DNA of 64,000 nucleotides, taken from contig OZ237749.1 in NCBI GenBank assembly GCA_965178125.1, forward strand, positions 992,001 to 1,056,000, given 5' to 3'. Every line of letters starts with the position of its first letter. The first letter of the stretch is position 1. The notes beneath the pieces were generated by a model. The model had not been told where the DNA came from. It made no database searches and was given only the letters and a program-made list of their open reading frames with translations. This document shows, one piece after another, positions 6,144 to 59,658 of the stretch. Position numbers and translations under genes: made by a program. The DNA is from Bilabrum cf. latius. Its lineage: Eukaryota.

Positions 6144-6508
6144 ATGGCTCTTGTTCCTGCTGCTAGGAACCCGTCGCATCGCCAATCCACGGCGTTCTGC
6201 CTTCAGTCGCAACGGCCGTCTGCTCGATTTGGCACGCTACTTCTCGACACAGAAATTAAAAATGGCCAACACAAATCAATCCCGGCAACGGGGGCCTTTT
6301 AAATATTGCCTCAATGTTTGGGTTCTTTTCTACTCCTGACACATCGAATGTGAGAGGGCGCACGTCATCTGTTACCGAGACGAGCCGCCGATCTTCGGTT
6401 GTTTCGCAGCAGTTGCACCTTGACGAGAGCGCACCAGTACAGCAAAAAAAGCAGGTGTCAGCAGTAAGCTCTGGTGCTCCGGCATAGGTTGGAAGTTCAT
6501 CGCTCCCT

Positions 6509-29800: not shown

Positions 29801-32800
29801 ATCCCGCCCGCAATCCCCAGAAGCACCGTCCTACACCCCGGCACCAGGCGTTGCAGCTCCCCCCGCCAGGTCGCTCGAGAACGCCACCGCCGGCCCTCGG
29901 CGCTTCTCGTGCGCCTTCACCAGGTCACGTACGACGGTGCCCGCCATCTCCATCACCTTGACCTGCAGGGCAAACGCAGGCTCCACACTCGCACCGGTGG
30001 AATCGCGCGCGGCCGATGCGGTGGCCCGTCCGGCCTCCAGTTGTCCCAGCAGCGACTCGAGCAAATGCTCCAGGAGCGGCTTGTCAAGGCCCTCCAGGGA
30101 CTCTCCGGAGGGCTGCCCACCCGCAGCAGTGGCAGCAGCAGCTGCAGCTTGCATGGCCTCCCTGGCATCCCTCCTGGTAGAATCCAGCCGCTGCAAGCAT
30201 CCCCCGTGAGGCGCCGCTCCCCGCCCGAACACCACTGGGACAGCATCGCCCCTGGAGGGCCCCCCCACCAGGATGCCCGCATCTCTCCCCTCCTACACCA
30301 CAGCGCTCGCCAGCGCACTGCTGACGTCAGCATCACGAGAAGGAAGTCCAGGCACCGACAGCACAGCGTGGGAGCTGTACTCGCGCACATCGGTGTCTTT
30401 GGGCAGCACCACGCTGCTGGAGCCCAGGGGGGTCCACAGGATCCCCGTGCCCGCGCCCTCGGGACCGCTCTTGCTCTCCCGCTCCGCCTGTGCCTTGGCC
30501 TCGTCCTCGGCTATCGCCCGAGAGTGCTCAGTGATGGCTTCGGGCAGCACGAGGTCGTCAGCAATCAGGCGATGGGAGCGAGTGCCGTCAGCCTGCGAAA
30601 TCAACGAGCCTGCCACGCTGATTGCCCCCGATCGCTTTGAGATCCGGACCAGCTCGTGCACCAGGCGCTGGTGGCCGATGCATGCGTCCACGCGGCCTAG
30701 CACCACGTACTCCGCGCTAACCTCCTGCTCTCTCTCCCCTGCGCTGCCGCTGCCGCTGGCGCCCGTGCTGGCAGCCCGGAGGCTCCCACTGACGAGAGAC
30801 ACGCCGCGACTGCTAGCGGTTGCAGGCTGAGACGGAGCACTAGGCCCTGCCCCAACCGCTGGCGGCTTGAACAGCACGACCTGCCCCACATGGACAGGCT
30901 TGCGGGCCGATGCGGTCCCAGTGCCTGCTCCCGAGGCCGCCGCAGACCCTGATCCAGATTCCGATGCTCCCTAAAGACTCCCGCCCGAGCCCGCGCGCAT
31001 CGCCCCCATCTCCATCTCTGCCGCTCGCGCCAGCATCTTGCCCACCGTTGCGCCTGCCTTCGACATTCTCTGCAGCACATCCAGCGCCTTGTATGTGTGC
31101 GCCCCAAGCGTGGCGATCTGAGCACGGGCACCCACCCGTGCCTCCTCCCCGCCAGCCCGCTGTTCCTCCACGAGTCTGCCAGCAGCCTCGGCTGCCTTGG
31201 TCGCGTGCCTGGCCACCTACAGCAGCATGCCCAGCGCGGGCACCATGGAGCGAGCCGACTCGATCTCCTTGCGTGACACGCGCAGCCCTGCTAGCTTGCT
31301 ATCAGAATCGGCCGGAGACTTGAGTGCGTGGGTCAGGCACTGCACCGCTAGAGTATCCGACGTGGCTCGCAGGGACTCGCCGAGGCACAGCGTCGCACAG
31401 TGCCAAATGTGCCTCTCGGCTTCGGATGGTACTAGTAGGCCGCTTGCGTCCTAGCCGTCGGGCGACTCTCCCGGCGCAGCAGCCGTAGCAGCAGAAGGAA
31501 TTGCGCCTTGTGCTTTGGAATGGGCTTCAGGTTCATGATCAATGGCCTTCCTGGCGGCCTGCGCAGCCACCTGCAGCTCCCGCAGCGCCCCGCCCGAGTC
31601 CGAGTCCACCTCCTCGCCTTCAAGTTCATCCTAGCTCTCCAGCTCGACTCTGGCCCTACCGCGTCCCTTCTTCTTCTTCGTCTTGTCAATCGTTCTGGGT
31701 CTCCCCTTTGTTTTCTTTGCCACGGAGAAGGCAGCACCCTTCTTTCTCAGCTTTCCCTTAGACGGCCGAGTGCCCCCCCTGGTCACCAGCTCGGGGGGTT
31801 TGGGGCACGCCACCACGGCCTCGACCAGCTTTAGTAGCAGCAGCAGCCCCTCCCCCCCCTTGCTCCCACGCAGCCTGTCTCCCTCGATGGACTGGGAGCC
31901 CCTCCTCTTCTCCAGCTGCCAGAGCGCCTCCATCCCTGACTGCATGCTGGAGGCCAGGGAGCGGCAGGCTGCCACTGCTGCCTTGCTGCCGGGAGCATCG
32001 CCAGGGCGTTCCAGCTCTGCGATGGAGCGGGCCCTGGCCTGGGTTGCGCCCTGCGCGCTCTGCAGACACTGAGTCAGCTTTCTCTGCGCCCCGAAGGGAG
32101 TCGACGGGTCGCTAGTAGCTGCGGCTCCCGCTCCTGGCCCTGCCGCTGCCCCTGCCGCTGCGAGTGAGCCAGACGAGGCCTTGGACGGGGCGCCGACCCT
32201 CCCGGTGACCTTTCCTGCCTTCATGCTTCGCAGTCCGTCATCCAGCGCGTCCTAAATACCGCCTCTGAATGCCTCGGGCAAAGCATAGTGCCTCACGCGA
32301 ATCCCTCCACTTGACGAGCTCACTGCTGCCCCGACAACCTCGAAATTCTGAATGCGGACCGCTGCCGGGGGGGCGCGAGCATCGATGCTACCATCCTCTT
32401 TATATCGTGGTACAACTTGCGGTTTTTCGCCGAGCATAGCAACTACACATGAGAGCTTACCCTTTCGGCTGCGATCCACCAGCATTGATTGGCTCTCCGC
32501 CCTGTCGGGCATTACAGTGCTGTCAGCCTTGATGCTGACTTCTATGCCATCTGGTATGCTGGATGCTTCCCTGCGCCGTGCCATTTGAGTGGCTAAATCG
32601 CGAATGCGAGCCATGTGCTTACGACAAAACCGTTCGAGTGTATCACAGTCCTAGTCGTAGTTCACCCGCAGGCGGTCAAGCAGACTGTTTATAGCGGGTT
32701 CTGGTAGATATCTTCGCTCGCCAGCATCTTGTACCTCGGCAGCCAAAACTATTTCGAGTTTGCGGTGGGGATGGCCACGAAAAGCGATCGGAAGCTCGGC

Positions 32801-32905
32801 AAGGGCGTTGATCACAGATGCTCTTGGGAGCGCCTCCCCTGGCTAATTGCCGCAGTACTGCGCCAAGTACCCTTTGAATCGGAGCGTGGCAGACGCAGCC
32901 TCCAT
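23867..32905 (-). CDS. Giant (~3,012 aa) protein with an internal ubiquitin domain and a C-terminal TKL-like protein kinase domain
   Basis: One continuous frame from ATG 32905 to TGA 23867, with ~18 TAG and no TAA/TGA. Kinase motifs (about 26670-24780): [46 protein letters not shown]. Confidence 0.82.
28244..28471 (-). other. Ubiquitin domain embedded in the giant kinase gene
   Basis: [75 protein letters not shown]. 76 codons; the TAG sits at ubiquitin Gln31. Confidence 0.95.
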
Positions 32906-33121
32906 TGAAAAATTCTTGCGGGCTGTTCTTGGAATCCTTTGTTTCTTCGTTTCATTCTTCTTCCTCAAAATTGGCGGACGGTTGCGACCGCTGGAGATCC
33001 GGGCTGGTCGGCAAACTGCAGGGATCCCCGCGCATAATCTTGGCAATCTGAGACACACGGCAGACGGCTGAATACCAGCCTGGCCAAAAATTCAAGACAA
33101 TAGTCGCATCGTGACGAGGCA

Positions 33122-36100
33122 TCACTGGGATGCCTCGGACTTGGACTCAGCTACTCCTTCCTCGGGCTGCTAGTCCTTGCGACTACCCAGGCGAACACCT
33201 GTCTGCCCAAAGTCTTCCAGCGCCTTGACGGAGGACCGAATGGCATCTAGCGCCGCTCCCATGGACTAGCTGTACAAGTCGGGACTGAAGGGAGCATCAG
33301 GCACTTGCTTCAGTCCGCCCCGCCCGTCCACTCCTCTCCCTGATCCACTGGCAGGAGACCCCGCCGGCTGGCTTCCTGCTCTCAGGCTGTTTCCCTGCGG
33401 AGTGCTCCATGCCTGTCCTTTCTATTGAGCAGCGCTCACCGAAGGTGGCGATGCATCGACAAGCCCGCCCCAGCCGCTGCCTCCCCTGCCACCAGTAGCG
33501 CTGGTACTGCTTCTACTAGCAGCACGTGGTGTGGTCGGCCTCACGATGCCCGATGACAGCACCTCCCTTCGGGCAGCCGTAGTGGGACTTCCATTCGATG
33601 CAGCACCCGAATACGAGGAGTCCCCCTTCCCCTCGTCAATGGCTGCCTTGTCTCCAACCTTGAACACTACCCTCCCACGCGGCGATGATACAATCATTGA
33701 GCCACCTTCATGGAAACGGGCGCAAAAGGCATCCCAATATTCGGATGTAGTATCACAGATATGCGGGTTCGGCTGCCACTTGGCCGGCTCCACTGCCTGC
33801 CTCGGCTCGATGGCGTGCTTCTTGAACGCCCGCTGCGACTCGCTCGTGCCGTCCAGCTTGTGCGGGTTCGGCTGCCACTTGGCCGGCTCCACTGCCTGCC
33901 TCGGCTCGATGGCGTGCTTCTTGAACGCCCGCTGCGACTCGCTCGTGCCGTCCAGCTTGTGCGGGTTCGGCTGCCACTTGGCCGGCTCCACTGCCTGCCT
34001 CGGCTCGATGGCGTGCTTCTTGAACGCCCGCTGCGACTCGCTCGTGCCGTCCAGCTTGTGCGGGTTCGGCTGCCACTTGGCCGGCTCCACTGCCTGCCTC
34101 GGCTCGATGGCGTGCTTCTTGAACGCCCGCTGCGACTCGCTCGTGCCGTCCAGCTTGTGCGGGTTCGGCTGCCACTTGGCCGGCTCCACTGCCTGCCTCG
34201 GCTCGATGGCGTGCTTCTTGAATGCCCGCTGCGACTCGCTCGTGCCGTCCAGCTTGTGCGGGTTCGGCTGCCACTTGGCCGGCTCCACTGCCTGCCTCGG
34301 CTCGATGGCGTGCTTCTTGAACGCCCGCTGCGACTCGCTCGTGCCGTCCAGCTTGTGCGGGTTCGGCTGCCACTTGGCCGGCTCCACTGCCTGCCTCGGC
34401 TCGATGGCGTGCTTCTTGAACGCCCGCTGCGACTCGCTCGTGCCGTCCAGCTTGTGCGGGTTCGGCTGCCACTTGGCCGGCTCCACTGCCTGCCTCGGCT
34501 CGATGGCGTGCTTCTTGAACGCCCGCTGCGACTCGCTCGTGCCGTCCAGCTTGTGCGGGTTCGGCTGCCACTTGGCCGGCTCCACTGCCTGCCTCGGCTC
34601 GATGGCGTGCTTCTTGAATGCCCGCTGCGACTCGCTCGTGCCGTCCAGCTTGTGCGGGTTCGGCTGCCACTTGGCCGGCTCCACTGCCTGCCTCGGCTCG
34701 ATGGCGTGCTTCTTGAACGCCCGCTGCGACTCGCTCGTGCCGTCCAGCTTGTGCGGGTTCGGCTGCCACTTGGCCGGCTCCACTGCCTGCCTCGGCTCGA
34801 TGGTGTGCTTCTTGAACGCCCGCTGCGACTCGCTCGTGCCGTCCAGCTTGTGCGGGTTCGGCTGCCACTTGGCCGGCTCCACTGCCTGCCTCGGCTCGAT
34901 GGCGTGCTTCTTGAACGCCCGCTGCGACTCGCTCGTGCCGTCCAGCTTGTGCGGGTTCGGCTGCCACTTGGCCGGCTCCACTGCCTGCCTCGGCTCGATG
35001 GCGTGCTTCTTGAACGCCCGCTGCGACTCGCTCGTGCCGTCCAGCTTGTGCGGGTTCGGCTGCCACTTGGCCGGCTCCACTGCCTGCCTCGGCTCGATGG
35101 CGTGCTTCTTGAACGCCCGCTGCGACTCGCTCGTGCCGTCCAGCTTGTGAGGGCTCGGCTGCCACTTGGCCGGCTCCACTGCCTGCCTCGGCTCGATGGC
35201 GTGCTTCTTGAATGCCCGCTGCGACTCGCTCGTGCCGTCCAGCTTGTGCGGGTTCGGCTGCCACTTGGCCGGCTCCACTGCCTGCCTCGGCTCGATGGCG
35301 TGCTTCTTGAATGCCCGCTGCGACTCGCTCGTGCCGTCCAGCTTGTGCGGGTTCGGCTGCCACTTGGCCGGCTCCACTGCCTGCCTCGGCTCGATGGCGT
35401 GCTTCTTGAATGCCCGCTGCGACTCGCTCGTGCCGTCCAGCTTGTGCGGGTTCGGCTGCCACTTGGCCGGCTCCACTGCCTGCCTCGGCTCGATGGCGTG
35501 CTTCTTGAACGCCCGCTGCGACTCGCTCGTGCCGTCCAGCTTGTGCGGGTTCGGCTGCCACTTGGCCGGCTCCACTGCCTGCCTCGGCTCGATGGCGTGC
35601 TTCTTGAACGCCCGCTGCGACTCGCTCGTGCCGTCCAGCTTGTGCGGGTTCGGCTGCCACTTGGCCGGCTCCACTGCCTGCCTCGGCTCGATGGCGTGCT
35701 TCTTGAACGCCCGCTGCGACTCGCTCGTGCCGTCCAGCTTGTGCGGGCTCGGCTGCCACTTGGCCGGCTCCACTGCCTGCCTCGGCTCGATGGCGTGCTT
35801 CTTGAATGCCCGCTGCGACTCGCTCGTGCCGTCCAGCTTGTGCGGGTTCGGCTGCCACTTGGCCGGCTCCACTGCCTGCCTCGGCTCGATGGCGTGCTTC
35901 TTGAACGCCCGCTGCGACTCGCTCGTGCCGTCCAGCTTGTGCGGGTTCGGCTGCCACTTGGCCGGCTCCACTGCCTGCCTCGGCTCGATGGCGTGCTTCT
36001 TGAACGCCCGCTGCGACTCGCTCGTGCCGTCCAGCTTGTGCGGGTTCGGCTGCCACTTGGCCGGCTCCACTGCCTGCCTCGGCTCGATGGCGTGCTTCTT

Positions 36101-36490
36101 GAACGCCCGCTGCGACTCGCTCGTGCCGTCCAGCTTGTGCGGGTTCGGCTGCCACTTGGCCGGCTCCACTGCCTGCCTCGGCTCGATGGTGTGCTTCTTG
36201 AACGCCCGCTGCGACTCGCTCGTGCCGTCCAGCTTGTGCGGGTTCGGCTGCCACTTGGCCGGCTCCACTGCCTGCCTCGGCTCGATGGCGTGCTTCTTGA
36301 ACGCCCGCTGCGACTCGCTCGTGCCGTCCAGCTTGTGCGGATTGGGAGACCATTGTGTTTGCACCGATGTTTCTCGTTTTGGGAGAGGTTTTGATGTATA
36401 CTCCACCCTATACTCAGTATCTGACTATAGCTTGGATCGTCGAGACAGCGCAATAGCTTTGGCGATCATCTCGGCTCGCTATGACTCCAT
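33122..36490 (-). CDS. SAXO/FAM154 (STOP-like) microtubule-stabilising repeat protein (~1,122 aa)
   Basis: ATG at 36490, a TEYRVEYT motif, then 33-aa repeats HKLDGTSESQRAFKKHAIEPRQAVEPAKWQPNP resembling SAXO Mn modules. A last degenerate unit reads DTTSEYWDAF. Reads through TAGs to TGA 33122-33124. Confidence 0.75.
33763..36340. repeat. Coding tandem repeat, 26 near-identical 99-bp units
   Basis: The unit starting gcgggttcggctgccacttggcc recurs at 33763, 33862, 33961 ... 36238. Only a few substitutions (aac/aat, ggc/ggt, ttc/ctc). Confidence 0.97.
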
Positions 36491-36916
36491 TGGCAAAACT
36501 GTGTATTTGAGTTTTCAAGACAAGCGAAAAGAAGTGATAATGTTATTGAATGCACCTATTAGGTTCAATTTTTAAGCGACGGTCGGTTCAGTTTCCTGCT
36601 ACTCGGAGCTTATAAAATCCGGTCGCACGAGGTCGCAGTGCTTCACGCAATTGAAGTGATACAAGAGATTACTTGAGCTAAAACTGTGGATTTAATCCTA
36701 AATACCCTTGATTTGCAGTGCTGAAGATTCGAAAAATGTGACTTTGTGCAGTAGAAGGTGCATGGTTAAGCCGAACAGCGTCGAGATACTGCGGAAGTGC
36801 TGCGCTGCCGCGGCTGGCCAACATAAATCTGGCCCAATGAATTCAGATCAACGGTAGCCAGTTCAAAATTCGCCCCGACTGCAGACAGTGAAATCAAGCG
36901 TGGGGTTCATATCCTC

Positions 36917-44027: not shown

Positions 44028-47000
44028 ATGAGCAACGCTGGGGCCGACTGGCGAGGAGGTGATGGCCAGGGATAGACTCCTTCTTTTGGAAACCAACCTG
44101 TAAGTCAGCGAGAATTACCTACCTGGCCTGTTGCACTGATTCCGACTGTGCCTACGCACGATCCATCCAAATCTAGCTATTTTTAATGATTGCGATTGCA
44201 GCCAGTGGGACGCGGCGTGGATGCTCTCCTTGAAATAGCAGCTCAGTCCGATACGGATAGCGACCTCGAGCAGGAAGCTACTCAACCAAGCATTGCACAG
44301 CAGTAGCCCAGCGTGGGAAATGCCCAAGCTAGTGGAACGATGTAGCGAGGACGCAGTGCAAGTGACTCGATTGAGCCTCGCGAAGCCGCACGCGCGGCAC
44401 GGCCAAGCCCGGCTCCAGCAACCGAAGCGGCTAGCGACTCCGCTGCCGCTCTACATCGGCCAGTAGCTGGCCTTCCGAGCACTACGTAGGGCCCTTCTCA
44501 AACGGAAGATCGCAATAAGCCGTATCCCGCAGGCCATCATGATCGTGGCGCGAGCAATCCACCACTGGCAGGCGGCGACGACTTGCAGCCGCACGGCGCT
44601 AGTCCCTACGCGCGCGCCCCGCAGGAGGGCAGTCGCGTGCTGGGCCTACCCCTTGCCCCATCGGCCGAGGACGGTCACTCGAGCCCCTTCCCCCGGCGAG
44701 ACTCCCTGCACAGCGACGCTGGTAGCCACCTGACCGACGGCGAGGAGCGGAGGAGGGCAAGGCGCCGGGCCAGCGAGATGGGCGACCACGATGGCGGCGG
44801 AGATGAAGCGGAAAGGGGTGCAGAGGGGAGGGCGGGGGCAGGGGTTGTGGCCGTGCCCGGTGGGCAGGTTGGCAGGAAGACTGGTGGCTAGGTGGGCAGC
44901 GCGTATCCTGGTATTGACACCGTGCAATAGCCAGGCACGGGGATGGACGCGGGCGGTGATGCCGGCGATGTTGGCCCGGGCCGTAGGACCGGCACCCCCG
45001 GGGGGAGGACGGGCGGGGGTGGGTCATCCACGAGGGGTGGCAGCAGGGGTGTTCCCTCGGCAATGGCGCGGGCCTCTGTGGAAGCAGGCCATGTGGGGAG
45101 CGGGAGTGCACGCAGCAGCATGCACGGGAGCTTCGCGTCGCACGACCCCGCGGATTTCCGTCGGAAGGGCAGGGACGAGGGGCCGATCGGGAGGTCCCTC
45201 TTTGGCCTGGGGGCGCAGGACCTCAACCACCCCCGCACTGGGGATGGGGACTAGGAGGGGGGGAAGACTGCCTCCGTGCGGTGGACGGGGCGCACCCGGC
45301 CGGTGTACTCCGGGCCCCACGGGTCCGACACCCGGTTCGTGCCCGGGTCTGGCCGGTCTCGGAGGGAGCTTGCTGAGCGGATCGAGAAGGAGCGGGGCAA
45401 GGAGCTGACCTTCAGGCCGAAGATCAACAGCAGCTACAAGTTCAAGCGCAGGAGGGACGGGGTGGTGGAGAGCATCGAGAGGCGCGTGGCGGAGCGGGAG
45501 GCAGAGCGGGAGATTTTGGCCATGGCGGTGCAGCAGCAGAGGGATAGGGAGCTCACTTTCAAGCCGAGGACCCAGAGGTCTCCTGACCAGAAGCAGAAGG
45601 AGCTGATGCAGAAGGCGGTGGAGAGGAGGAGGCAGGGGAGTGACGTGTTCGGCTACCTCTACAAGCGGGGTCAGGAGGACAAGCGACGGGCGGCAGAGGA
45701 CGCCCGCGCCAAGATGGAGAAGGAAGCAGCCATGAGGCGGGCCGAGGAGGAGGCCAAGCAGAGGAGAAACCTCCCGCGCGCGAGGCAGAACGAGGGGGCC
45801 TCTCCCAGCGTGAAGAGGGCGCTGGCACAGAGAGAAAAGGCGAAGCTCGCCGCGGGGGGCAGGGCCTCGGACCTCCTCTACATGTCCGCTGTGGCCCATC
45901 AGAACCCCACGGCGGCTCTGCAGCGAGCCAAGAGGCGCGACACTGGGGAGCATTCGTCGGCCCCTGGTGACGAGGCAGAGCGGGAGCGAGAGCAGAGCGC
46001 GGGTGCTGCTGCAGACGGGGAACTGGAGGAGGCAGGTGCAGGTGCAGGCGCAGGCGCAGGCCCGACAACAGCCACCAAGGGCGGTAGCGAGCGCGCCGCC
46101 GCCGCCGCTACTGCTGCTGCCCATCATCCGATTTTCTCAGAGGAAGACGTGAAGGCGGCCCAGGACGCACTCGGTGCGTATGCCCCGCGCAAGGCGGTGC
46201 TGGCAGCGCTGCAGGCGCAGAGACAGGAGACGAAGCCCGAGCAGCTGCGCACCTCTGGATCGCCTCAGGCAAGGCGGCCCCGCCTGCGTAAGGGCCAGGG
46301 TATCGGGGGCGGGCGGGCCGCAGGCAAGGTGGAGCAGATCCATGCCGCCAGGGAACATAGGATCCAGGAGGACCTGCGGTCTAGGGTGGATAGGGACAAG
46401 GCGGCGCGGTGGAGGGAGCGTGTGGAAGCCACCAAAGCGGCGCTGAGCAGGACTTACAAGGCCAAAGAGGAGAAAGAAGGCGAAGGAGGGGGAGCAGACG
46501 CTGCGTAGGGCGGGGATGGCGCGGGCGGTGGAGTGGCAGGGCCAGCCGAGGGATAGGGCAACGGGAAGCGGCATGCCCGAGGCCGGATCCAGACTCCACC
46601 GGACCTCGAGTCGGACTACACCCGAATGCAGGCCCTCGGCGTGATGCACTCGCTGAGGAGCCCCGGGCTGGGACGCGACGGGAAGGGGTAGGCCAAGGAT
46701 GGTGAGGGGGCTGGTGAAAACTAGGAGAGAGGGAGCGTAGGTGACGTGTCGGAGCCAGAGGAGGGCGCGGTGCCTGGAGACGGGCAAGCGGAGGGTCGGG
46801 AGGCAGGCAAGACCGTGAGCCCGCAGAGACCCGTGCTCAAGAACGGAGGCGCCCCCACGTCGTACGCAGCCAAGCTGGTGGCAGAGAGCGCCAAGCGAGA
46901 GGCCCAGCGGAAGAGGGAGGAAGCCGCGGCCGTGCTGTCTCCGGAGCAGAGAAAGAGGCTAAAGGGGCAGCTCAACGAGTCGCTCGGCAAGTACTCAGAG

Positions 47001-50000
47001 ACTGGCCGCAGGCGGAGGGCGGCCGCAGAGCGGGAGGCGGGGCAGGCCGAGCTGGGAGTGGAGAGCAAGAGCGAAGAGCCCGCGGGGGGTCTGGCCGCGC
47101 CCAAGGTGGAGGTGCCGCAGGGTGCACTGCACGACCGCATGAGCGGGATCGGGACTCGTCCCACGATGCATATGGAGAACACGTCGGGGCGCAACGCGCG
47201 CGCGTGGGACGGCTTCTCCCCCAGCTCTCTGCAGAGAGCAGAGGTTGCGGCGCAGCGGGCGTGTCATGTGGCCATGCAGAGGGCCATCAAGGAGGGCAAG
47301 AGCAAGGAGGAGGCGGAGCAGGAGGGCGAGAATGCCGCGGCGGAGGTGCTCCGTGCTGCTGGGGTGGGCAGGCAGTTTCAGGCCAAGGCTGGTCCACAGG
47401 AGCGCAGGAGGAAGAGGACAGCTTCCAAGGGTAGCGCCAGCGCCAGCGAGAGCGCTGCTGGGGAGGGCGAGAAGGGACAAGAGGGGGAGGGTGAGGGGGA
47501 GGACGAGCCCAAGGAGAAGCTGTCTCTGTCTTCCTTCCGACAGCGCGTGGACATGTGGATCCAGAGCCACTGGTCAAAGCGGCGCGCCCTCGAGCAGCAG
47601 AGGCTGGGCAAGGAAGAGAAGGACATGCAAGAGTGCACGCACACCCCCATCGTAAGAGAGGTGCCAGCGTACCTCCTTGCCAACGGACGCAGGCCGCAGT
47701 CGAAGCTGCCGCAAGGAGCGCGTATCCCGGGCGTGGCTGCCCGTCGGCGGCGGGAGCTGCGGGCACAGGTGCTGCAGGCCAAGCGGCAGCAGCAGGCAGC
47801 TGCGCTCGCGCAGCAGCGGGCCCGTGAGCAAGGTGTCCCCGTGGAGCAGGTGCTCGCGGAGGCGCCTCCTCTGCAGAACGAGATGGAGGAGACCGTGGAG
47901 GAGGTGCTCTCGATGGCGTGGGGGCCCGTTGCCAGAGACCCTGAGCCGCGAGGGTACAAGGAGAGTGTGCAGCGGCTGCGGGGTGCCGCGGCCTATCGCG
48001 CGGCGGTGAGTCGTGTGGAGCGGGGCAAGGAGCTGCGTCCCTTCGGCTTGGACGAGGAGGAAGAAATCGAGGACGAGTGGGAGCAGGAGCAGGCGCAGGG
48101 TCCGGGAGACGATGCGGGTGGGCAGGCCTCGGGCCAGAGAGGCCCACGACGGACCGTAGGAGTCGAGGTGGCCCGCGCTGCCCGACAGGCTGTCGGCATG
48201 GGCAGCCCGGGAGACAGGCGCATCGCCAAGGTGCCTGCTCCCGGCCAACTGGTGCATGGGACGCAGAGCCCCGGGCAGGCTCGGAAGCAGCAAAGCAGGA
48301 CCCCAAGCAAGGGGCCATCCTCCTCGTCTTCGTCATCGTCCCCGAAGAAGGCGCGCTGGGTCTCGTGGGGCCCCGCCGAGACTGCCCTGGGCAGCGGGCA
48401 TGCTGAGCGCCCACTGAGCGACTTCAGACCCGCCTCGGAGCAGCGCCGATCAGAGAAGTGGAGGATGCAGGCGACTCTGCGGGCGGCCGAGGAGGGCCAG
48501 CGCATCCATGCCAAGATCGAGGCGAGGAGGCAGCTGCTGCAGCAGGGGATCCAGCCGCACGACTCTGCATTCCCGACCTCGCTGCAGAACGAGCACGACA
48601 GGACCGTGCTGCGCGCAGGGCATCCAGAGCTGGTCGGTGAGATGGCCTCGCCAAGCGGCCTGGGTCTGCCCGCGCCTCCTGAGGAGCTCGGCATCGAGCC
48701 GCAGTAGGCCGGGAGACCTGCAGGGGACGCGGCTGCCGCCGGTGCATCCCCGGGGGCGTCGGCTCTGACCCGATCGAGGGTCAGAAAGGGGCGGGGCCTC
48801 AGGGCCGGCACGGGCACGGACGGGTCTCCTGTGCCAGAGAAAAAGTAGCAGCAAACGGATTCGAAGGGATAGTTGTCGCCTTCTATCCAGCCGTCCACGC
48901 CAGAGCGGCCATCGGTTCAAGATCCCAGTCCTTTCGACGAGGGTTAGGACACGCGAGGCAACGAAGATGTGCCAGGAGCCAACACAAGGGGGCTGGTGGT
49001 GCCCGTGCGGCGGTTGGGCATGCGTGCAGCTGGTGGCGATACCAATGCGTCTACCGCGCCATCTTCGGACCTTGCCAATGGAGAGGCCGCGGAGGACCCG
49101 CAGTCGAGCGGCGGGGGAGGATTCGACGATTGGCTGAAGACTGGCAAGATGCGGGCCAGTACTGCGGCTGCCAGGCTCGCTGCTGGTGCGCTAGATCGCG
49201 CTGCCCAAGCCCCAGACGCCCCTGCCAGCGCCAGGTCCCCAGCGGGCGCCGGCAGCGACATCTTGTCCACACCTCCCTTCAAGCAGCGCGGTGCCCCTGG
49301 CAGCACCCCGCCGTCTGGACGCTCCCCTGCGCAACGAGCCGCGGCGCTTGCTGAATCAGGAGGCGACAGTAATAAGAAGGGCAACAGCCCTGCGTGGGAC
49401 TGGGCAGACCAGACAAGGGCGGCATAGTCTCCTGCTGGCGGTGACGAAGCCCTTCCTGAACGAGCCGAGCAGCAGCAGCATATCGACAGTGCCTCCCTCC
49501 CTGGGGGGCGCAAGGCACTGCGAGCCACCACTGACCGCAAGCGGGCTAGGTTTGGAGGCCTGAGCTCGCCTCCCGCGGGGTCTTTGCCCGGGTCCCGCGG
49601 CAGGCGCGCGGGTCGCGAGCAGATATACGCGCATGGAGGCGTGACTGACAAGGACGCCCTCGTGCCGGACGAGAGCGCGCCGCCGCTCCCTACAGAGGAG
49701 CAGGAGAGGCGCAACGCCAAGGCCCAGGGGTAGCGTGGTCGCAGGACCTCTGCCAGGAAGCGCCGCCGGTCGATCGGGTCCGTGCAGTCGTCTGTGGCGG
49801 TGGCCACGCGCGGGACAGGCAGCTACCAGGCTGCTCTGCTGCAGCGCGAGTCCACTCGGTTACGGGAGCAGGCCCGGCTGGCGATGCTGGACGAAATGGC
49901 GCGGCGGGAGGCCGAGGAGGACGAGGTGGAGCGCGAGCGGGTGGTGCAGGCTGCGCAGATGGTGGCTCGAGGGCTGGTGGGTCCAAATGGGGAGGCAGTC

Positions 50001-50615
50001 GGCGGGTGGGGCCCCGGAGAGGCGCCTCTGCAGCCCGAGTTCCACCACGGTCAGGAGGCTACACAAGTACATGAAGTCAGCGATGCTGAAGGTCGCGGCC
50101 GCGAGTATGACGTCGATGTAGAAGAAGTTGGTGCGCATGGCAGGGGCATGCAGGGAGGTCATCAGCTGGACTCTGTGTCGGAGCCCGGGAGCGATCCCGC
50201 GGAGGGCACTGCTGCCCTTGCTCCTCGGGGTCCTGCACGTGAGGACTCCGATTCCGCGGCAAGGGAGGCAAAGCCGCGGCCGGGGCCCCCCGCCCGTCGC
50301 AGGAGTGTTCCACGGGTGCCCTCAGGGCCCAGAATCCCCTTCTAGTCCGACGAAGACGAGCAAGAGCAAGAGTTGGACAACTCCAGAGGTGCCGCACAGC
50401 CGCAAGAGGTCGAGGGGGCAGTGGCGGGGTCTACTGGGGGATCGTCCCGCACGAGCTCTAGCCCGGGAGATCAATCCAGTGCCAGAGAGTTCGGGTCTTC
50501 GTCGCAGTACGCGGGGCAGGATGGGCTGTACTACCCGCCCAGCTTGCCCACAGCTCTACTTGGGGGTGGTGGATCAGAGGATCAGGATACTGGCGAGGAC
50601 GAAGGAGACGCGTGA
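44028..50615 (+). CDS. Large low-complexity/coiled-coil hypothetical protein (~2,161 aa; intron 44100-44201) with ELTF(R/K)P motifs
   Basis: Seven listed ORFs share one frame, separated only by TAG. ATG 44028, GTAAGT...CAG intron, TGA 50613-50615. Motifs ELTFRPKIN, ELTFKPRT and ECTHTPIV suggest a cytoskeleton-associated protein (inference). Confidence 0.72.
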
Positions 50616-52347: not shown

Positions 52348-54567
52348 TCACTCCGTTGGGGCGTCCCACTACGTCCGTCCATCCTTATGAGCGTAGAAGG
52401 TATCCCCGTCGTCATCGGTCACTTTGGACCATCCCTCGGGCAGATCTTCCTTGTCCCCGTCCTCGTCCCCGTCCGCCGCATTGGCTAACGGTGCTTCCCA
52501 CTATGTATCTCCATCTTCGTGCACGTAGAACGTATCACCGTCCTCGTCTGTCACCTTGGACCACCCCGGCAGCAGCTTCTCTTCCTCGTCGCCCGGCTCC
52601 TCCTTATCTCCTGCCTCCTCTCCCTCTTCCTCCCCGTCAGCCATCGGGGGGTCCCACTGCGTCCGTCCGTCCTCATGCGCGTAGAAAGTGTCCCCGTCGT
52701 CATCGGTGATCTTGGACCACCCCGGGGCAAGCTTGACTTCAGCCCCTTCCCCTTCCCCTTCCCCTTCCCCTTCCCCTCCGTCCCCCGCGCTCTCCTTTTC
52801 TTCCTTGTCCTCGTCTTCCTTGTCCTCCTTGCCGGGGTGGTGGCTCATGCTGTGAATGCGACCCCTGGCCCCCTCCACCTCCCCCGCCCCTCCCCCCACG
52901 GCCCCTCCTGCAGCAGCCTCCCCGGGAGCCGTCGCATCCTCCGGGATCCCCGTCACCTCGTCCTTGCCCCCGGACCAGCTGGGCTCGCCCGCGGGTCGCC
53001 CCGGGAGCGCCTCGAGCTTTGCCTCGCTCACCACCGTAGCAGGGGGCTTGCTCGGGTCCGCGAAGCCCGGCCTGCCCTTGCGTTCCGACGCCCCCGACCC
53101 CTCTGCCTGCGCCATGATCTCCGCCACGTTGAGCTCCAGCGCCGCCTCCATGTGCTGCGCCTGGTCGCTGACCACGTACACGAGGAACGTGTCCGCCTCG
53201 TCCTTGACCTTGAGCGCAAACACCTTCTTGTCCTTGGACAGCGTCCACGAGTCTATGTCCACGAGGAGGTGCTGCTCCAGCGCCAGAGGGTCCTCCATCC
53301 CGGTGAGATGCACCCCGTCGTGGCTCACACCCACCGTCACGTCCTCGGTTCGCTGCCGCACCACGGCCTCCGACGGCTTGGAGTTCATCGTCTTCCAGGT
53401 TCGCTTGCCCACGAAGAACTGGGCCCCGAACGCGACAAAGTCCTTGGACACCTCGACGAACTCGCGCTCCGCCGACAGCCGACTCACCCCCTTCAGCTTG
53501 CGCCACCGCCCCAGCACCAGGTCGGCCGCATCCGACTTGCTCACTGCCTCCGCCCTCGACCTCCCGACGTGGCGGAACACCTACGTGCACCCGTGCGGCA
53601 GGCCGGCCACGGCGCCGGCCGCCTGTTTCTGCGCCGCAAGTGCCCCCTCTTTCCCCGCCCCCGCCCCTGCCCCCGCCTTCTTCGGGCCCTTCAGAGCCGC
53701 TCGCGTGGCTCTGTCCGCCGCATCGGGCGCGTCCCGCAGCAGGTAGGCAGGCACGAGGTCCTCCATCAGCGGGGTCACCACCTCGGGGCTGTCGCGGCCC
53801 TCCTGGAAGTCGCCCCTGCGAGCCTGCAGCAGCAGCGCCGACAGCAGCGTGGCGACATCCCTGGGGAACCTGTGCGAGCACTCCAAGAAGTGGAACTGGC
53901 ACTCGGCGAACACCACCCGGTGGTAAGGGTCCGACGTCGACGTGGCAGCGTCCTCGCGCTCGTCCACCGGGCCATCTGGCTGATAGCTTCTTCGCTTGAA
54001 GTAGAGCCGCCGCTCTCCTGCGCAGCTTGTACGATGAATGCAGATACGTCAATGGTATGATCGGTACCGTGGAGCAAGCTGCGATGACCTGTGCTTGGCA
54101 CGCGAGCATGTCAAAGCGCGCGAATGTTGAGTGCCTCTGAAGCTCACCATTAGCAACATCAGAGGCTGTCCACTTGCGAAGAACAGACTACATTTTGCTA
54201 TCATCTCGCAGAAGGGATAATACTCCACGGTAATAATCCATAAGGCCGTATTCGTGATCTAGTGAAATGTCTAGCTGCGAGAAAACGCCAAACGAAGTGA
54301 CGAGGCACTGGCACGACTTGAGCGCAACTGAAGCTACCTGGCTTTAAACATAGACTCGCATAATAGTGCCGCAAATGCTGCTGCCAATGGCGACGGCTAG
54401 TGCAATCGGTAAGGCAGTCTCACCTTGTCTCGAATTGCAACGCATAAGTCTCCTACGTTGGCTTCTGGCTTCACCGAGACCGTAAAAACCGTACCGTCCA
54501 GTAAGTACACAGGAATTTCTGTGCCAGAGGCTACCAGCTGGATCGAACCGCTTCCAAACAGTGCCAT
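52348..54567 (-). CDS. FERM-domain protein with three C-terminal WW repeats (~646 aa; introns 54275-54423 and 54018-54147)
   Basis: F1: VYLLDGTVFTV...IRDK|LDISLDHEYGL, RLYFKRR. F2: DVATLLSALLLQARRGDF, DLVPAYL. F3: FGAQFF, VGVSHDGVHL. WW repeats of the form LxxGWSK(I/V)TD(D/E)DGDTFYxHxDGxT(Q/*)W(D/E)xP; TGA stop. Confidence 0.88.
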
Positions 54568-54834
54568 GCCGACGGTCTAACTGGGTCAGGTATTGGCGTC
54601 CCAAGCAGGATCTACGTGCCAAACGTAAGACCAAGCAAGTGCAGCGATGATTCTTGAATTCAATGCACAATATCTATGTACACCTCTAGTGATACGCCCG
54701 TACAGACCCTTCAAGGTACAACCCAGCAACGGATTGCGCCGCGTGGATTCGCCGGATCGAACTTTTGAGGTTTTAATCTTCTTCTTGAAAGTTCAACACG
54801 CTACAAAGGACCTCTTGCAAACCCCCCGCCCTAA

Positions 54835-55426
54835 TCAGTCATTTCGCGCACGTTTCGCAGGCCTGGTGTCAGCACTCTACTGAGAAACCTTAACCACTGC
54901 ATGCTCCGCGTTCACGACATTCCTGAAGTTCGCGGGACTAAGTGAAATTGACGGCATCACACCATCCTCATCTCGATCATCATCCTTTAGCTCAGACAGA
55001 CTGGACAGTTCTTCCGAGAACCGTCTTCGCTTACTTGCCTTCGGTCGCTTCCACTCACCAGCTTCGGCACCATCCTCGCTCTGCTGGCTCGTACTTTTGA
55101 GGTTGCGACCGGACCGGCGTTCGAACCTCCGAGTCGCTCGACGACGGCCGGGGCGGGGCTTGGTGAGAGGCCGCCACCAAGTCAAAAGCATGTATCTTGG
55201 AAAGACCTAAAACCATGCCAGCGTAGACATGGGCTGGGGCCTTAGCCAGCGTCAGCATCCCCACGGTTCCACCCCGGACCCGCCCGCCCGTGGAGAAGGC
55301 CTCGAGCCTCCGAGCCAAATTAAACGCCTGCAGCAGGTGATAGAGCGATTTAACAGCGCTCACCTTATCAATACTCCATCTCAGCACATGTTTTCGATCG
55401 AACCCCGCCACCACATTGCGCCCCAA
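54835..55426 (-). CDS. Possible small intron-containing hypothetical gene (5' end unresolved)
   Basis: Charged, protein-like frame (KRPKASKRRRFSEELSSL...) reading through one TAG to TGA 54835-54837; candidate intron 55207-55363. No homology recognised. Confidence 0.3.
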
Positions 55427-55773
55427 CCTCTGCCTTCAGGCCTGGCTCGAGCCATGCCGGGTGAAGCCTGCCCGTGGAGGTGCAGGTCGGGTCACGGTGC
55501 TCGACCTCAGTGCGCAGTGGGTCCAGCTCGTTAGCCACCTGTATCCGATGAGCGGCGGAGTACCTGTGGCAGTGTAGCCGCCTCCATGGGCCACGGTCAC
55601 CCGCGTCTGCACTCGCCCTGCCGCCGCGCGTCGCCGGCTTTAATCGCGTCGCCGGTTGCAACTGCGTTTTCGCCCATTTTTGCGCAGTTGACACGTTGCC
55701 TGCGAGCTCGTGTTCGCCAGAATCTTGGCTTCGATTCTTTTTTGGAGGACACATACAAGAGACTGGAGTCGTC

Positions 55774-57624
55774 ATGGCAACCGTAGCGGAGCACCCGCGG
55801 CAGCGCGGGGGCCAGCCCAGCCACGCAGCTTCTGCAATCCAAATCTCAGGGTCCTACTGCTGCTGCTGTTTATGCGGTCTTGCCGGCGCCCACCACGCGT
55901 ATCTCGGTCGTTCATGGTCGGCCATTCTATCGGCGATGTCTTGCAATCTGTTCGGGTGCGGTTGGATTGCTGACGGCTTCTTGATCCCTCAGTACGCAAC
56001 TGTGCAGCAGCAGCAGCGGTGGGAAGCGTACCATGAGCGTGATGCAGTACCAGAGACTGACACAGCTACAGAAATAGTGCAGCGGAAAAAATCAGGCGTT
56101 CCATTCGACCTTCACGAATCCTTCCTCTACCGATGCATGCTGCTGCTGACTGCGCTGAGCTGGGCCCCTCACATTCCCTACCAATTTGTGTATGGAGAGG
56201 CACTCGCAGTGATGGGAAGCAGCACATACCGACCAGATGCCTAGGCCCGAGAGATAGCTCAGGCCGGGGCCGCTGCAGTGGCAGGGATGGTTGCGGCGCT
56301 GATCGCAGTGGCCGCTTGCTCCGCGGGGGCGCCCAAGCGCAGAAGTACGACCGCGCTGCTCGCTCTGTGCGCAATCGGTGCTGCGATTGGGGGGTTTGGC
56401 CGCATGTACGGCAGCTATTGGGGCCTGCCAGGGCTATCTGCCTCGGAGGGCAGAGGGGCGGGATCGGTCCAGGGACTTGGAGGCAACGAGACAAATGGGG
56501 GTGAGGACGATGGCGAGGGAGAGGGAGAGGGAGAGTGGGAGGGGGATGAGGAAGAGGACGACTGGGGCCCCGGAGCGGATCCTGCCCCTTTCGTCTTGCT
56601 GGCGCTTCCAGCCGTGCTCGTGCTGCTGGCAGGCTGCTGCCTGCCCCTAACGTGCAACCCCTTCCCGCCCGCCTTCCAGTGGGACAAGACGTCCGCACCG
56701 GTGGCACAGGGCACTTCTGGTGTGCCAGTGGAAGGGAGGCGCAAGCAAGAGGTAGATGATGACCCGCCGACCCAGGGCAGCAGCGCCGAGGGAAGATCAG
56801 TGGAGGAGGAGAAGGAGAAGGAAGAGGAGGAGCAGGTGGAAGAGATCCGGTGGGCGGGCACGAAATTAGGCGAGCTGCCGAGTGACGGCCCCGTGGCGGG
56901 CTGTGCGCGCGTGATTCTGCTGCTATCGCTTGCCGGCATGTGGTGGGGCATGTCCCTGTGGGTGCTGGTGCGAGATGCACCCATCCGTGTGCCCCTAGAA
57001 GCATGTGACGAGCGCGTGCATCCCCAGTGGCGCGTGTCCGGCGATTGGGACGAATCAACAGGTGCGTTCGAGGAGGACCAGTGCAGGACGTACGTGGGTG
57101 TGCTGGCGAGGAGGTGGGCCATGGAGGTGCCCCGCGGCGTGGCCTGGGTGTATGCCCACTGGAGCATCCTGTACGAGTCCATCTCCGAGGGTCTGCAGGA
57201 CGAGGCTGGGATGGAGGCCAGGCACCTGCAGGAGCTGGGTCTGGAGGAGGGCGCCAGCTGGGGCGCGGTCAAGAAGGCCTACAGGGGACTGGCTAGAGAG
57301 CTGCACCCGGACACTGCGGGCAGGAAGAGGGGCGGGCAGGGCGAGGAGGGGGATAGCAAAGAGGATAGGCTGGCTCGGTTCCATCGGGTGAGGCACGCCT
57401 TTGAGGAGCTGCAGGTGCTGCGGGGGCAGGGGGGCAGGCATGGACGAGGGGCGGAGGAGGAGGAGGAGATGGGGGCGGGAAAAGGTGCCAGTGGAACGAG
57501 ACAAAGGCAGTGGCGGGCGAGTCAGCGCGGAGGAGGAGGCAGAGGCAGAGGGAGTAGGAGAAGCAGGGCGTCAGGAGGCGGTCGGATGGGGCGGGGTGGT
57601 GGGGGACACGGGAACGAGCTGTGA
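55774..57624 (+). CDS. Multi-pass membrane J-domain protein with N-terminal TM2-like domain (DNAJC22/Wurst-like architecture), copy 1 (~616 aa)
   Basis: TM2-like GLAGAHHAYLGR...LFGCGWIADGFLIPQY. J-domain LGLEEGASWGAVKKAYRGLARELHPD...RFHRVRHAFEEL. One TAG; ends GNEL-TGA. Confidence 0.82.
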
Positions 57625-59239
57625 TGGAGGGTTGGCTTGGAGCCTTAACATAGCGCGAGAATCACTGCTAGAACTTTTGCACCTAGATCTAGCGACTTGC
57701 CGCTGTAATGTGTGACCATGCCCAGCCAGCACACTCGTCATCGCACCCCCGTGGCTGCTGCTTTCACCAGGCACACAAAGACCCCTACCGAAAGCACTCT
57801 GCAGGAGCTGCTATTGCCTTGAGTTTATTGTTGACAAGATTGGCAAGCTGATATTCGTATGCCAGTGGTTGCTCCCGTTCGCTGCTGCTCGCGAGAGTTA
57901 TGCAGCAGGTGCGCCCAGTCACCGGCCCTCTGTCTTGATAGTTGCGCCCCATGCTGCTGCTGCATAGCGTGTGGGGCGTGCGGTGCCCACCATGCGTACA
58001 TAGGCAAGTCGTGCTCGGCTGTTGTTGCGGCCACCACATGCAATTTCTGCTTGATCGGCTGGTTGAGCGACGGGATCGCACTTGAGAAGCACGCCATCGA
58101 GATGGCGATGCTCAGGCATCTATCGATGCCAAATTGCTTTTACGACGAGCTTAATTATAATGATGAAACGATCGCCTTCGATAAGTTGCGAACATTGCAC
58201 ACGCTATACGGTCGTAAAGATTCCTCTCTATTGTGGAGCGTGCTGGCGCTTGCTGTTGCGACTTTCATATCTGTGTATGCAGGTATGATTGTGCGTGGTG
58301 AGATCATATCGCTGATTGACGCAAATCCCTACGATCCTGGCGTTTATTCGATGTGGGTGTCCGATGTGGTGGCTGCTGCAACGACGGGTGGTGTATCGTC
58401 AGCACTCTCTTGCGCATTTGTGATGGCCGGTCTACCGAGGGGGTATGAGCAGTACCGTGTAGCGAGCCATATGAGTACTATTGCGCTTATGTTTGGAGCA
58501 GGGCTTGGAATCTGCATTGGATGGCCAGGACTGCTTAACACAGGTGTCGATAGACTGCTAACAGCGAGCACTAGCGCTTCATCCCACAGCCAATTTGCAG
58601 CACAAGTGATTGCCTTTGTCATTCCACTTATTATTTTGGGCATAAGCTGCTGCTTGCCAAATCGGGGCGAGCTCGAATCTGAGCCGCAGAGCTGCATCCA
58701 AAAGTGGTGCGTGAATCCGTTCACACCCGCTATTCAGTGGGATATGCATCGGATGGGTCCTCCGGACGAAGAGAGGTACATTAACAGGAACAGTAGCATG
58801 GCAGTCGACCGCGAAGCCGTGCTCGGGGCAAGAATTGGCGAGGAGGATGAGTACGAAGATGTTGCACCCGGCCTCCGTCTGCGCAACGCGAATCCTAGAC
58901 GTCGAGGCAGAGATAAGGGCACAGAAGAAGACCCGAGCGCATTGCACAGAGATACTGAGTTCGAGATCCGGTGGGCCGGTACACCGCACGAAGAGCTGCC
59001 TGCGAGAGGTGTGGTCGCGGGGTGCCGGCGCGTGCTGCGGGTGCTTGCATTCGGGGTGCTTTGGTGGGGCATGATTCTGTGGCAGGTTGTGCGGGATGTA
59101 CCCATCCGCGTGCCCCTGGAAACGTGTGACGAGCGCGTGCATCCCCAGTGGCGCGTGTCCGGCGATTGGGACGAATCGACAGGTGCGTTCGAGGAGGACC
59201 AGTGCAGGACGTACGTGGGTGTGCTGGCGAGGAGGTGGG
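57004..59239 (+). repeat. 115-bp near-identical block shared by the two J-domain paralogues (57004-57118 and 59125-59239)
   Basis: tgtgacgagcgcgtgcatcc...gcgaggaggtggg is identical except for one substitution (57057 a / 59178 g). Confidence 0.92.
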
Positions 59240-59658
59240 TGCTGGACTGGGACACAGCGCGGCTGGCCTGCTTGCTTCCTCTGTCTGGCTGCAACTCGCG
59301 CGTGGACATGCCTGGGCAGGGAGCAGATGTGCACCTGCATGTGCTGAACCTAACCAGGAATGCCAGCTGGGAGCAGGCCCGTGAGAAGTATCTGGACCTG
59401 TCCTAGACACAACATCCCGAGGTAAGGCGGGATGCCAGTGGACAAGACGCTGGGAATGGCACTCATGTGACGGACGAGCCAAGGTTGAAGCAAGTGGAGG
59501 AATACCTCCGGGTGAGGCACGCCTTCGAGGAGCTGTGGGTCCTGCACGACCTGGGCATCTTCGGTGCAAGCCGAGACGACAGCAAGAAGCGATCGGGTGG
59601 CATGAGAACCGAGTAGGACGGGGTTCCCGAGTCGCCTATCGATCGGGGGGAGCTATGA
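57859..59658 (+). CDS. Tandem paralogue of the TM2+J-domain protein, copy 2, HPD changed to HPE (~599 aa)
   Basis: GACGAHHAYIGK...IGWLSDG, EIRWAGT, PIRVPLETCDERVHPQW, LNLTRNASWEQAREKYLDLS*TQHPE...RVRHAFEEL. Ends RGEL-TGA. Confidence 0.82.

Follow-up and report, generated by a model that had tools for sequence, protein, structure and literature searches.

The window, the whole stretch of 64,000 nucleotides of DNA that was analysed, carries on its minus strand a gene (52348-54567) for a protein of 646 amino acids, whose spliced frame contains four in-frame TAG codons and is open if TAG is read as sense. Its three exons (54567-54424, 54274-54148 and 54017-52348) are separated by GT-AG introns which coincide with the joints in RNA contigs. 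Pfam analysis revealed the FERM_M and WW families (PF00373 and PF00397, with three WW stretches at E 2.9e-22), and the gene shares the FERM central domain and three WW domains with known FERM and tandem WW proteins. An atlas look-up of the protein yielded nothing. A PfkB family gene begins approximately 105 bases beyond the stop of this FERM-3xWW gene.

Codon alignment of WW repeat 1 (52645-52731), repeat 2 (52489-52575) and repeat 3 (52357-52443) revealed CAG at 52657-52659, TAG at 52501-52503 (codon 596) and TAG at 52369-52371 (codon 640) to fall in one column, namely that of the Q in TQW, a position also occupied by Gln in the aligned WW domains of Itch and NEDD4L. These minus-strand codons read exactly as quoted in the preliminary description, which named no strand, and lie in one frame with TGA at 52348-52350, which was confirmed as the true stop of the gene. 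Pairwise pN/pS values for WW1, WW2 and WW3, with purifying selection measured between the gene's own three repeats, were 0.21, 0.21 and 0.19 over 28 codons (binomial p of 2.5e-4, 6.6e-3 and 3.8e-5). Since WW3 lies wholly downstream of the first WW TAG and has a pN/pS of about 0.2, this implies that WW3 is still translated. The TAG of WW3 is situated seven codons ahead of the stop and is followed by the conserved W..P, which argues against context-dependent termination. An independent DNA run (X4 record 19), which may be the source sample itself, matched the window without mismatch across both WW TAGs.

The contigs X1-X3 were taken as RNA because they skip GT-AG introns, the run records carrying no RNA label. 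In the FERM-3xWW gene, the minus-strand TAG at 54188-54190 (codon 77, exon 2) reads unedited in X1 record 6, a spliced RNA contig, as does that at 53581-53583 (codon 236, FERM central domain) in X1 record 5. Between 41 and 56 kb, 18 of the 23 in-frame TAG codons lie inside listed RNA contig pieces with zero differing letters, so that editing is not the general explanation; the DNA run agrees with the window at all 23 sites. The RNA coverage of repeats 2 and 3, which the preliminary description had offered as a check, was found as depth in bins, but both WW TAGs are among the five sites outside every listed RNA piece, and this is no evidence either way.

Further long frames with TAG, and with neither TAA nor TGA, were found in the window. 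An IP3R/RyR-like channel frame (6260-17929, plus strand; 3889-3890 codons) contains 25 TAG codons; with stops drawn by window frequency, the chance of 25 TAG without TAA or TGA in 3889 codons is about 5e-13. Application of NCBI table 15 lengthened the longest frame of the window from 1001 to 3890 codons, and reading TAA as sense brought no change. In the kinase frame (23867-33091, minus strand; 3074 codons, 18 TAG), the TAG at 28379-28381 (minus strand) falls on Gln31 of a ubiquitin domain, as evident from alignment to PDB ubiquitin. For the third frame (44190-50615, plus strand; 2141 codons, 17 TAG), most of the TAG codons lie under unedited RNA contigs.

The channel frame has RIH_assoc and Ion_trans domains with PDB matches to ITPR2 and RyR, and in its N-terminal part two Cache/PDC sensor domains (PF22673, E 2e-34, and PF02743), i.e., a bacterial-type ligand sensor joined to a calcium-release channel; no IP3-binding-core family was reported for it by the domain search. 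In the kinase frame, an internal ubiquitin domain is accompanied by a protein kinase domain interrupted by long acidic inserts. At 33122-36514 (minus strand), approximately 30 near-perfect tandem repeats of 28 amino acids were found, which we take to resemble microtubule-binding STOP/SAXO repeats. Tandem paralogs on the plus strand (55552-57624 and 57835-59658) have a TM2-like N-terminus, a DnaJ-like C-terminus and an identical block of about 45 amino acids. A dispersed AT-rich repeat lies at 54770-54800; its 28-mer or close variants, spread over more than 20 contigs, made up 29 of 37 matches of an unrelated pattern. Additional DNA contigs accumulate at 54769-55093, and Rfam gave no match for this repeat at 54.8 kb. 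Elsewhere in the genome analysed (G000), one frame of 6830 codons under table 15 spans approximately 803,960-824,450 of contig G000:C15 (L209-L211).

The meaning of TAG was assessed at 19 dynein heavy-chain loci of this genome against 149 of 150 homologs, with P0352 (99% identical) excluded and codons counted if aligned to at least 10 homologs. Among 32,811 aligned codons, 95 TAG, no TAA and no TGA were found, with TAG present in 19/19 loci. The 21 conserved TAG columns comprised 16 Gln, four Glu and one Val, and the pooled profile at TAG columns gave a Q frequency of 0.29, compared with 0.30 for CAG and 0.29 for CAA. At the dynein columns, the log-odds for the meaning of TAG were +97 for Gln and -10 for Glu as the next best residue. 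A TAG of the eRF1 gene stands at a column with Gln in 82 of 85 homologs. TAG occurs in 55 of the 65 long ORFs sampled from 264 kb of contig C15 and makes up 229 of the 2507 Gln codons of all 65 (~9%). Like CAA, it is used more often in low-GC3 genes. In-frame UAG thus occurs at conserved Gln positions across many genes, with UAA and UGA each absent inside genes and used as stop. Table 6, in which UAA and UAG both mean Gln, was rejected, as there is no in-frame TAA in the 32,811 codons and TAA ends genes; UGA reassignment was likewise rejected, with no in-frame TGA in these codons and TGA at 25 of 31 gene ends. Judged from the sequence data, the nuclear code is very probably NCBI table 15, with UAG read as Gln throughout and UAA and UGA as stops.

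One intact tRNA(CUA) gene, single by exact pattern, was found at G000:C23:907607-907679 (Rfam, 69.8 bits; also ARAGORN). It has a full cloverleaf with a T-run downstream, and TAG-using ORFs surround it on the same contig. A CUA-anticodon tRNA is thus present, and no tRNA(UUA) was found among the Rfam and pattern matches in non-exhaustive searches. The 16 inspected candidates among the CUA/UUA pattern matches held no suppressor tRNA, and others of these matches were repeats. Neither a His nor a Leu tRNA of the nucleus was seen in the tRNA list, for which 63 of 780 candidates were scored and whose search patterns do not capture tRNAs with introns or long arms. Several members of one group of Met(CAU)/Pro-like tRNA copies (L026, L036, L040, L047-L049) have an altered anticodon loop, and the T-loop of many nuclear tRNAs (Lys, Ile, Val, Arg, Asn) carries A54. 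The tRNA(CUA) would pair with UAG but not with UAA owing to a C34:A mismatch, which would explain why UAA remains a stop.

tRNA(CUA) was compared with 29 other nuclear tRNAs, parsing having failed for Cys, Ser and one Met-like type. Over 53 variable columns, tRNA-Tyr(GUA) came closest with 34 matches, compared with 28 matches for Gln(CUG) and 26 for Gln(UUG). Over the acceptor and anticodon stems, chosen post hoc and with paired positions that are not independent, the match to tRNA-Tyr was 20/24, while 388 unrelated pairs had a maximum of 16 and a mean of 8.3. The acceptor stem matched Tyr at 12 of 14 positions (Gln(CUG), 6; Gln(UUG), 2) and the anticodon stem at 8 of 10 (Gln(CUG), 6; Gln(UUG), 4). 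C1-G72 and a variable loop of 5 nt are common to tRNA(CUA) and tRNA-Tyr; in the two Gln tRNAs, the first pair is G1-C72 and the loop has 4 nt. In this post hoc comparison tRNA(CUA) has the C1-G72 pair and Tyr-like acceptor and anticodon stems, as a member of the tRNA-Tyr lineage would; at the Tyr identity positions it has G73 and C34 in place of A73 and G34, so that it is not expected to be a TyrRS substrate.

Eukaryotic Tyr identity is described, in the accessible part of a review, as A73, C1-G72, G34 and U35, and the bacterial Gln elements as including G73, U1-A72, G2-C71, G3-C70, G10, U35 and A37; the eukaryotic Gln set is blank in the review's table (PMC9976931). The tRNA(CUA) departs from tRNA-Tyr at 2-71, 37 and 73, and each of these differences takes it closer to the bacterial Gln set and further from Tyr identity. 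From the stem likeness to Tyr together with these changes we infer a Tyr-derived suppressor captured by GlnRS: a duplicate of tRNA-Tyr(GUA) would have become an amber suppressor by G34C and would have been handed from TyrRS to GlnRS by A73G, G2-C71, A37 and a Gln-type D-stem, the present tRNA then presumably being charged with Gln by GlnRS. We lean towards this descent on the grounds of tRNA sequence comparison.

A serious competitor, to which we give a substantial but less than even chance, keeps the same code and derives tRNA(CUA) in the usual way from tRNA-Gln(CUG) by G36A or from recombination with Gln tRNAs, the Tyr likeness being due to chance or only partial. Such a route was put forward in the accessible text of a report on another organism (PMC5304391), and it would fit the D-stem (8/8) and the T-loop, both identical to those of tRNA-Gln(UUG), the G73 common to both, and the second-best overall score of Gln(CUG). 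Moreover, 15 of the 388 unrelated pairs reach 34 over all 53 columns. What speaks against a Gln origin is the distribution of the likeness, with both Gln tRNAs well below Tyr on the acceptor and anticodon stems, no unrelated pair above 16/24 on these stems, and the first base pair and variable loop length being those of Tyr.

The release factor eRF1 has presumably lost or weakened its recognition of UAG. The single eRF1 gene (G000:C35) has changes beside the stop-reading motifs (human numbering), namely G29A and N30D next to GTS, S60V in TASNIKS, and N129S and K130H in YxCxxxF; A29 occurs in 0 of 84 homologs. T32, GTS, E55 and S70 are intact, and L69Q is present, as it is in standard-code plants. 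The protein is fast-evolving over its whole length, with 46 changes at columns whose conservation is 85% or higher, and as it is divergent throughout, no single change can be blamed. The search for literature on the altered residues gave no result. The eRF1 mRNA itself has two UAG codons that need to be read for synthesis of eRF1. Q69 also occurs in a bicosoecid-like eRF1 clade (P0136, P0138, P0139 and P0140), one member of which is filed under Symbiodinium sp. KB8, and P0139 additionally has ARGSGTS and RVTRQ.

A dual meaning of UAG, as sense codon and terminator, would be in line with the retained T32, a residue linked to UAG reading, and was weighed on gene ends defined by motifs. Judged by eye, the coding part of 18 of 30 Ras/Rab loci closes with a prenylation-type Cys motif, directly after which stands TGA (15) or TAA (3), the remaining 12 being without motif or intron-cut; 12 of the 19 dynein loci reach the conserved C-terminus, with TGA in 10 and TAA in two, and the eRF1 gene terminates with TAA. 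TAG was found at none of these 31 ends, as opposed to TGA at 25 and TAA at 6. Coding scores extend as far as the stop in 45 of the 65 ORFs from the 264-kb sample; this stop is TGA in 41 and TAA in four, the ORFs being defined under table 15 and these counts therefore blind to TAG ends. No depletion of TAG near stops was seen in this sample, as evident from its share of Gln codons at 1-30 codons (4/40), 31-100 codons (11/121) and more than 100 codons (154/1583) from the stop. Independently defined ends number only 31, and 20 of the 65 ORFs have low-scoring tails that could not be classed. Context-dependent stops of the Condylostoma or Blastocrithidia type are not indicated by this small sample, with TAG at 0/31 ends and undiminished in the last 30 codons, and the TAG of WW3 with its conserved downstream residues speaks against them as well. 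A dual meaning is therefore considered highly improbable.

Still less probable is that UAG is ambiguous or stands for another residue such as Glu, Tyr or pyrrolysine. A slight surplus of Glu-conserved columns was observed (4 of 95 TAG sites versus 12 of 1422 CAA/CAG sites, p ~0.007), but three of these four sites are one column in three paralogs, where a fourth paralog has CAG, and both Glu-conserved TAG columns carry CAG in a paralog. Since the excess is explained by shared paralog columns that also take CAG, Glu was rejected as the reading of UAG. The Tyr-like tRNA body with C1-G72 would suit Tyr, which has a frequency of only 1.1% at the dynein TAG columns. ARAGORN labels the tRNA as tRNA-Pyl; this label stems from the anticodon alone, the fold is a standard cloverleaf, and the TAG columns say Gln. 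The chance that the standard code holds, the TAG codons being premature stops or the result of leaky readthrough, RNA editing or errors in the assembly, is practically nil, being a formal possibility for one gene, and pseudogenes were likewise rejected, given TAG in all dynein loci and the single eRF1 gene, as many as 25 TAG per gene, the agreement of the DNA run at all 23 sites and of RNA contigs at 18 of them, unchanged, and purifying selection downstream of a WW TAG.

The preliminary description had held that TAG behaves as a synonym of CAG in the WW repeats and that no outside reference is needed to see this. The synonymy is borne out by genome-wide alignments, gene ends, RNA contigs and the tRNA(CUA) gene. 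The claim of self-sufficiency was slightly too strong; three repeats by themselves leave room for local readthrough or RNA editing and are silent on TAA, and it was the four lines of evidence just named that settled matters. We conclude with high confidence that the WW repeats simply use a third Gln codon as a synonym of the others, under a code that applies to the whole genome.

The organism, a single-celled protist of marine type that is probably related to Cafeteria, is in all likelihood a stramenopile and, with less certainty, probably a bicosoecid, as far as sequence comparisons can place it. The best named eRF1 match is Cafeteria roenbergensis (69%), and a quick IQ-TREE analysis of eRF1 (64 rows) grouped the sequence with Cafeteria (SH-aLRT 87) and, in a wider group, with Bicosoecida sp. 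CB-2014 (84). Cafeteria uses the standard code. For CTP synthase, the best named matches include Bicosoecida sp. ms1 and Cantina marsupialis, and FastTree placed the sequence among stramenopiles without resolving its position inside them; these placement trees are single-gene trees of moderate support. Cox1 is best matched among named sequences by Saprolegnia (78%), with no close named relative. The genome comprises 48.6 Mb on 111 contigs and is GC-rich with few short introns. A metagenome scan of 80 loci yielded one close relative (L098, 82% nucleotide identity), whose eRF1 has TAG at a Gln for which G000 has CAG and ends in TGA; this one site suggests that a small clade may share the code.

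The mitochondrial genome of 38 kb (G000:C111, 38.4 kb) has a tRNA(UCA), with UGA read as Trp. Code 4 applies to this genome (L052-L054, L096), which contains much enlarged ribosomal-protein ORFs of 808, 1063 and 419 amino acids, presumably rps3, rps4 and rps10. Two types of 18S were found, a short divergent tandem array of 1700 nt on a large contig (L056, G000:C12) and a copy of 1802 nt on a 17.9-kb contig (L055, G000:C95). The latter, which we take to be diatom-like, is probably food or a contaminant. Mitochondrial UGA = Trp is described for bicosoecids in the accessible text of PMC6723347.

Taken together, we tentatively propose the first change of a stramenopile nuclear code, a Tyr amber suppressor captured by GlnRS, and UAA kept as a small-minority stop in a GC-rich genome. 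No stramenopile nuclear code change or Tyr-derived decoder was found in the literature searched, as far as its accessible text extends (including PMC13768787, PMC12152300 and PMC11412368; coverage of subscription journals was thin), and no stramenopile is listed in the accessible parts of the reports on the Iotanema, Hartmannula, Trochilia and Protocruzia codes (PMC5304391, PMC9161772, PMC11687900). The chance that a stramenopile code change was reported earlier is rather low. If the proposal is true, UAG would have come to mean Gln via the tRNA of another amino acid, a route for a nuclear code not described in the accessible literature searched, and a Tyr-bodied, Gln-charged tRNA would define eukaryotic Gln identity elements. 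Nuclear codes splitting UAA and UAG have been described in a handful of lineages, to which an independent case is added, apparently the first nuclear code change among stramenopiles; a well-assembled genome and RNA data are available for it, together with eRF1 and the decoding tRNA. This opens to test how eRF1 drops UAG and keeps UAA, here without a T32 change, and from where UAG-reading tRNAs arise. The minor use of UAA contradicts the idea that UAA is retained since almost all genes use it, and low GC is unnecessary. Annotation under the standard code cuts short most genes of the lineage.

According to the accessible text of the respective reports, UAG = Gln with UAA and UGA as stops is known from Iotanema spirale, in which UAA and UAG are likewise decoupled and a tRNA(CUA) is predicted, though not identified in that text (PMC5304391, PMC9161772). 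Iotanema is an unrelated fornicate, and its dominant stop is UAA (PMC5304391), in contrast to UGA here. T32G is present in the Iotanema eRF1, whereas the eRF1 described here retains T32 and differs at positions G29, N30, S60 and K130. The same table 15, without dual meaning, is reported for the ciliates Hartmannula sinica, Trochilia petrani and Protocruzia tuzeti, in which 78-84% of genes contain UAG, compared with 55 of 65 long ORFs here, and UAG makes up 18-32% of Gln codons, compared with ~9% here (PMC11687900). In these ciliates, UAA ends 87-98% of genes, given as the reason for its retention (PMC11687900), whereas here UAA is retained despite being a minor stop, at 6 of 31 gene ends and 4 of 45 ORF ends. 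H. sinica and T. petrani yielded no suppressor tRNA according to the accessible text (PMC11687900), whereas a tRNA(CUA) gene was identified here. In the UAR = Gln systems of table 6 (Tetrahymena, diplomonads, ulvophytes), a tRNA(CUA) brings Gln, as here, but UAA also means Gln, which is at odds with the lack of TAA in the 32,811 codons and its use at gene ends.

The su3 tRNA-Tyr G73 mutant is an E. coli amber suppressor mischarged by GlnRS. Mischarging by this enzyme is also described, in the accessible part of the review, for E. coli amber suppressors derived from tRNA-Trp, -fMet, -Ser and -Asn and for tRNA-Lys A73G (PMC9976931). In these suppressors, a non-Gln body with CUA (U35) and G73 becomes a Gln carrier, as proposed here; they are bacterial laboratory mutants, whereas the tRNA(CUA) would serve a eukaryote as a natural decoder that has become fixed. 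The code itself is a known one, and what differs here is the lineage, UGA as the main and UAA as the minor stop, the intact T32 and the Tyr-like body of the decoder.
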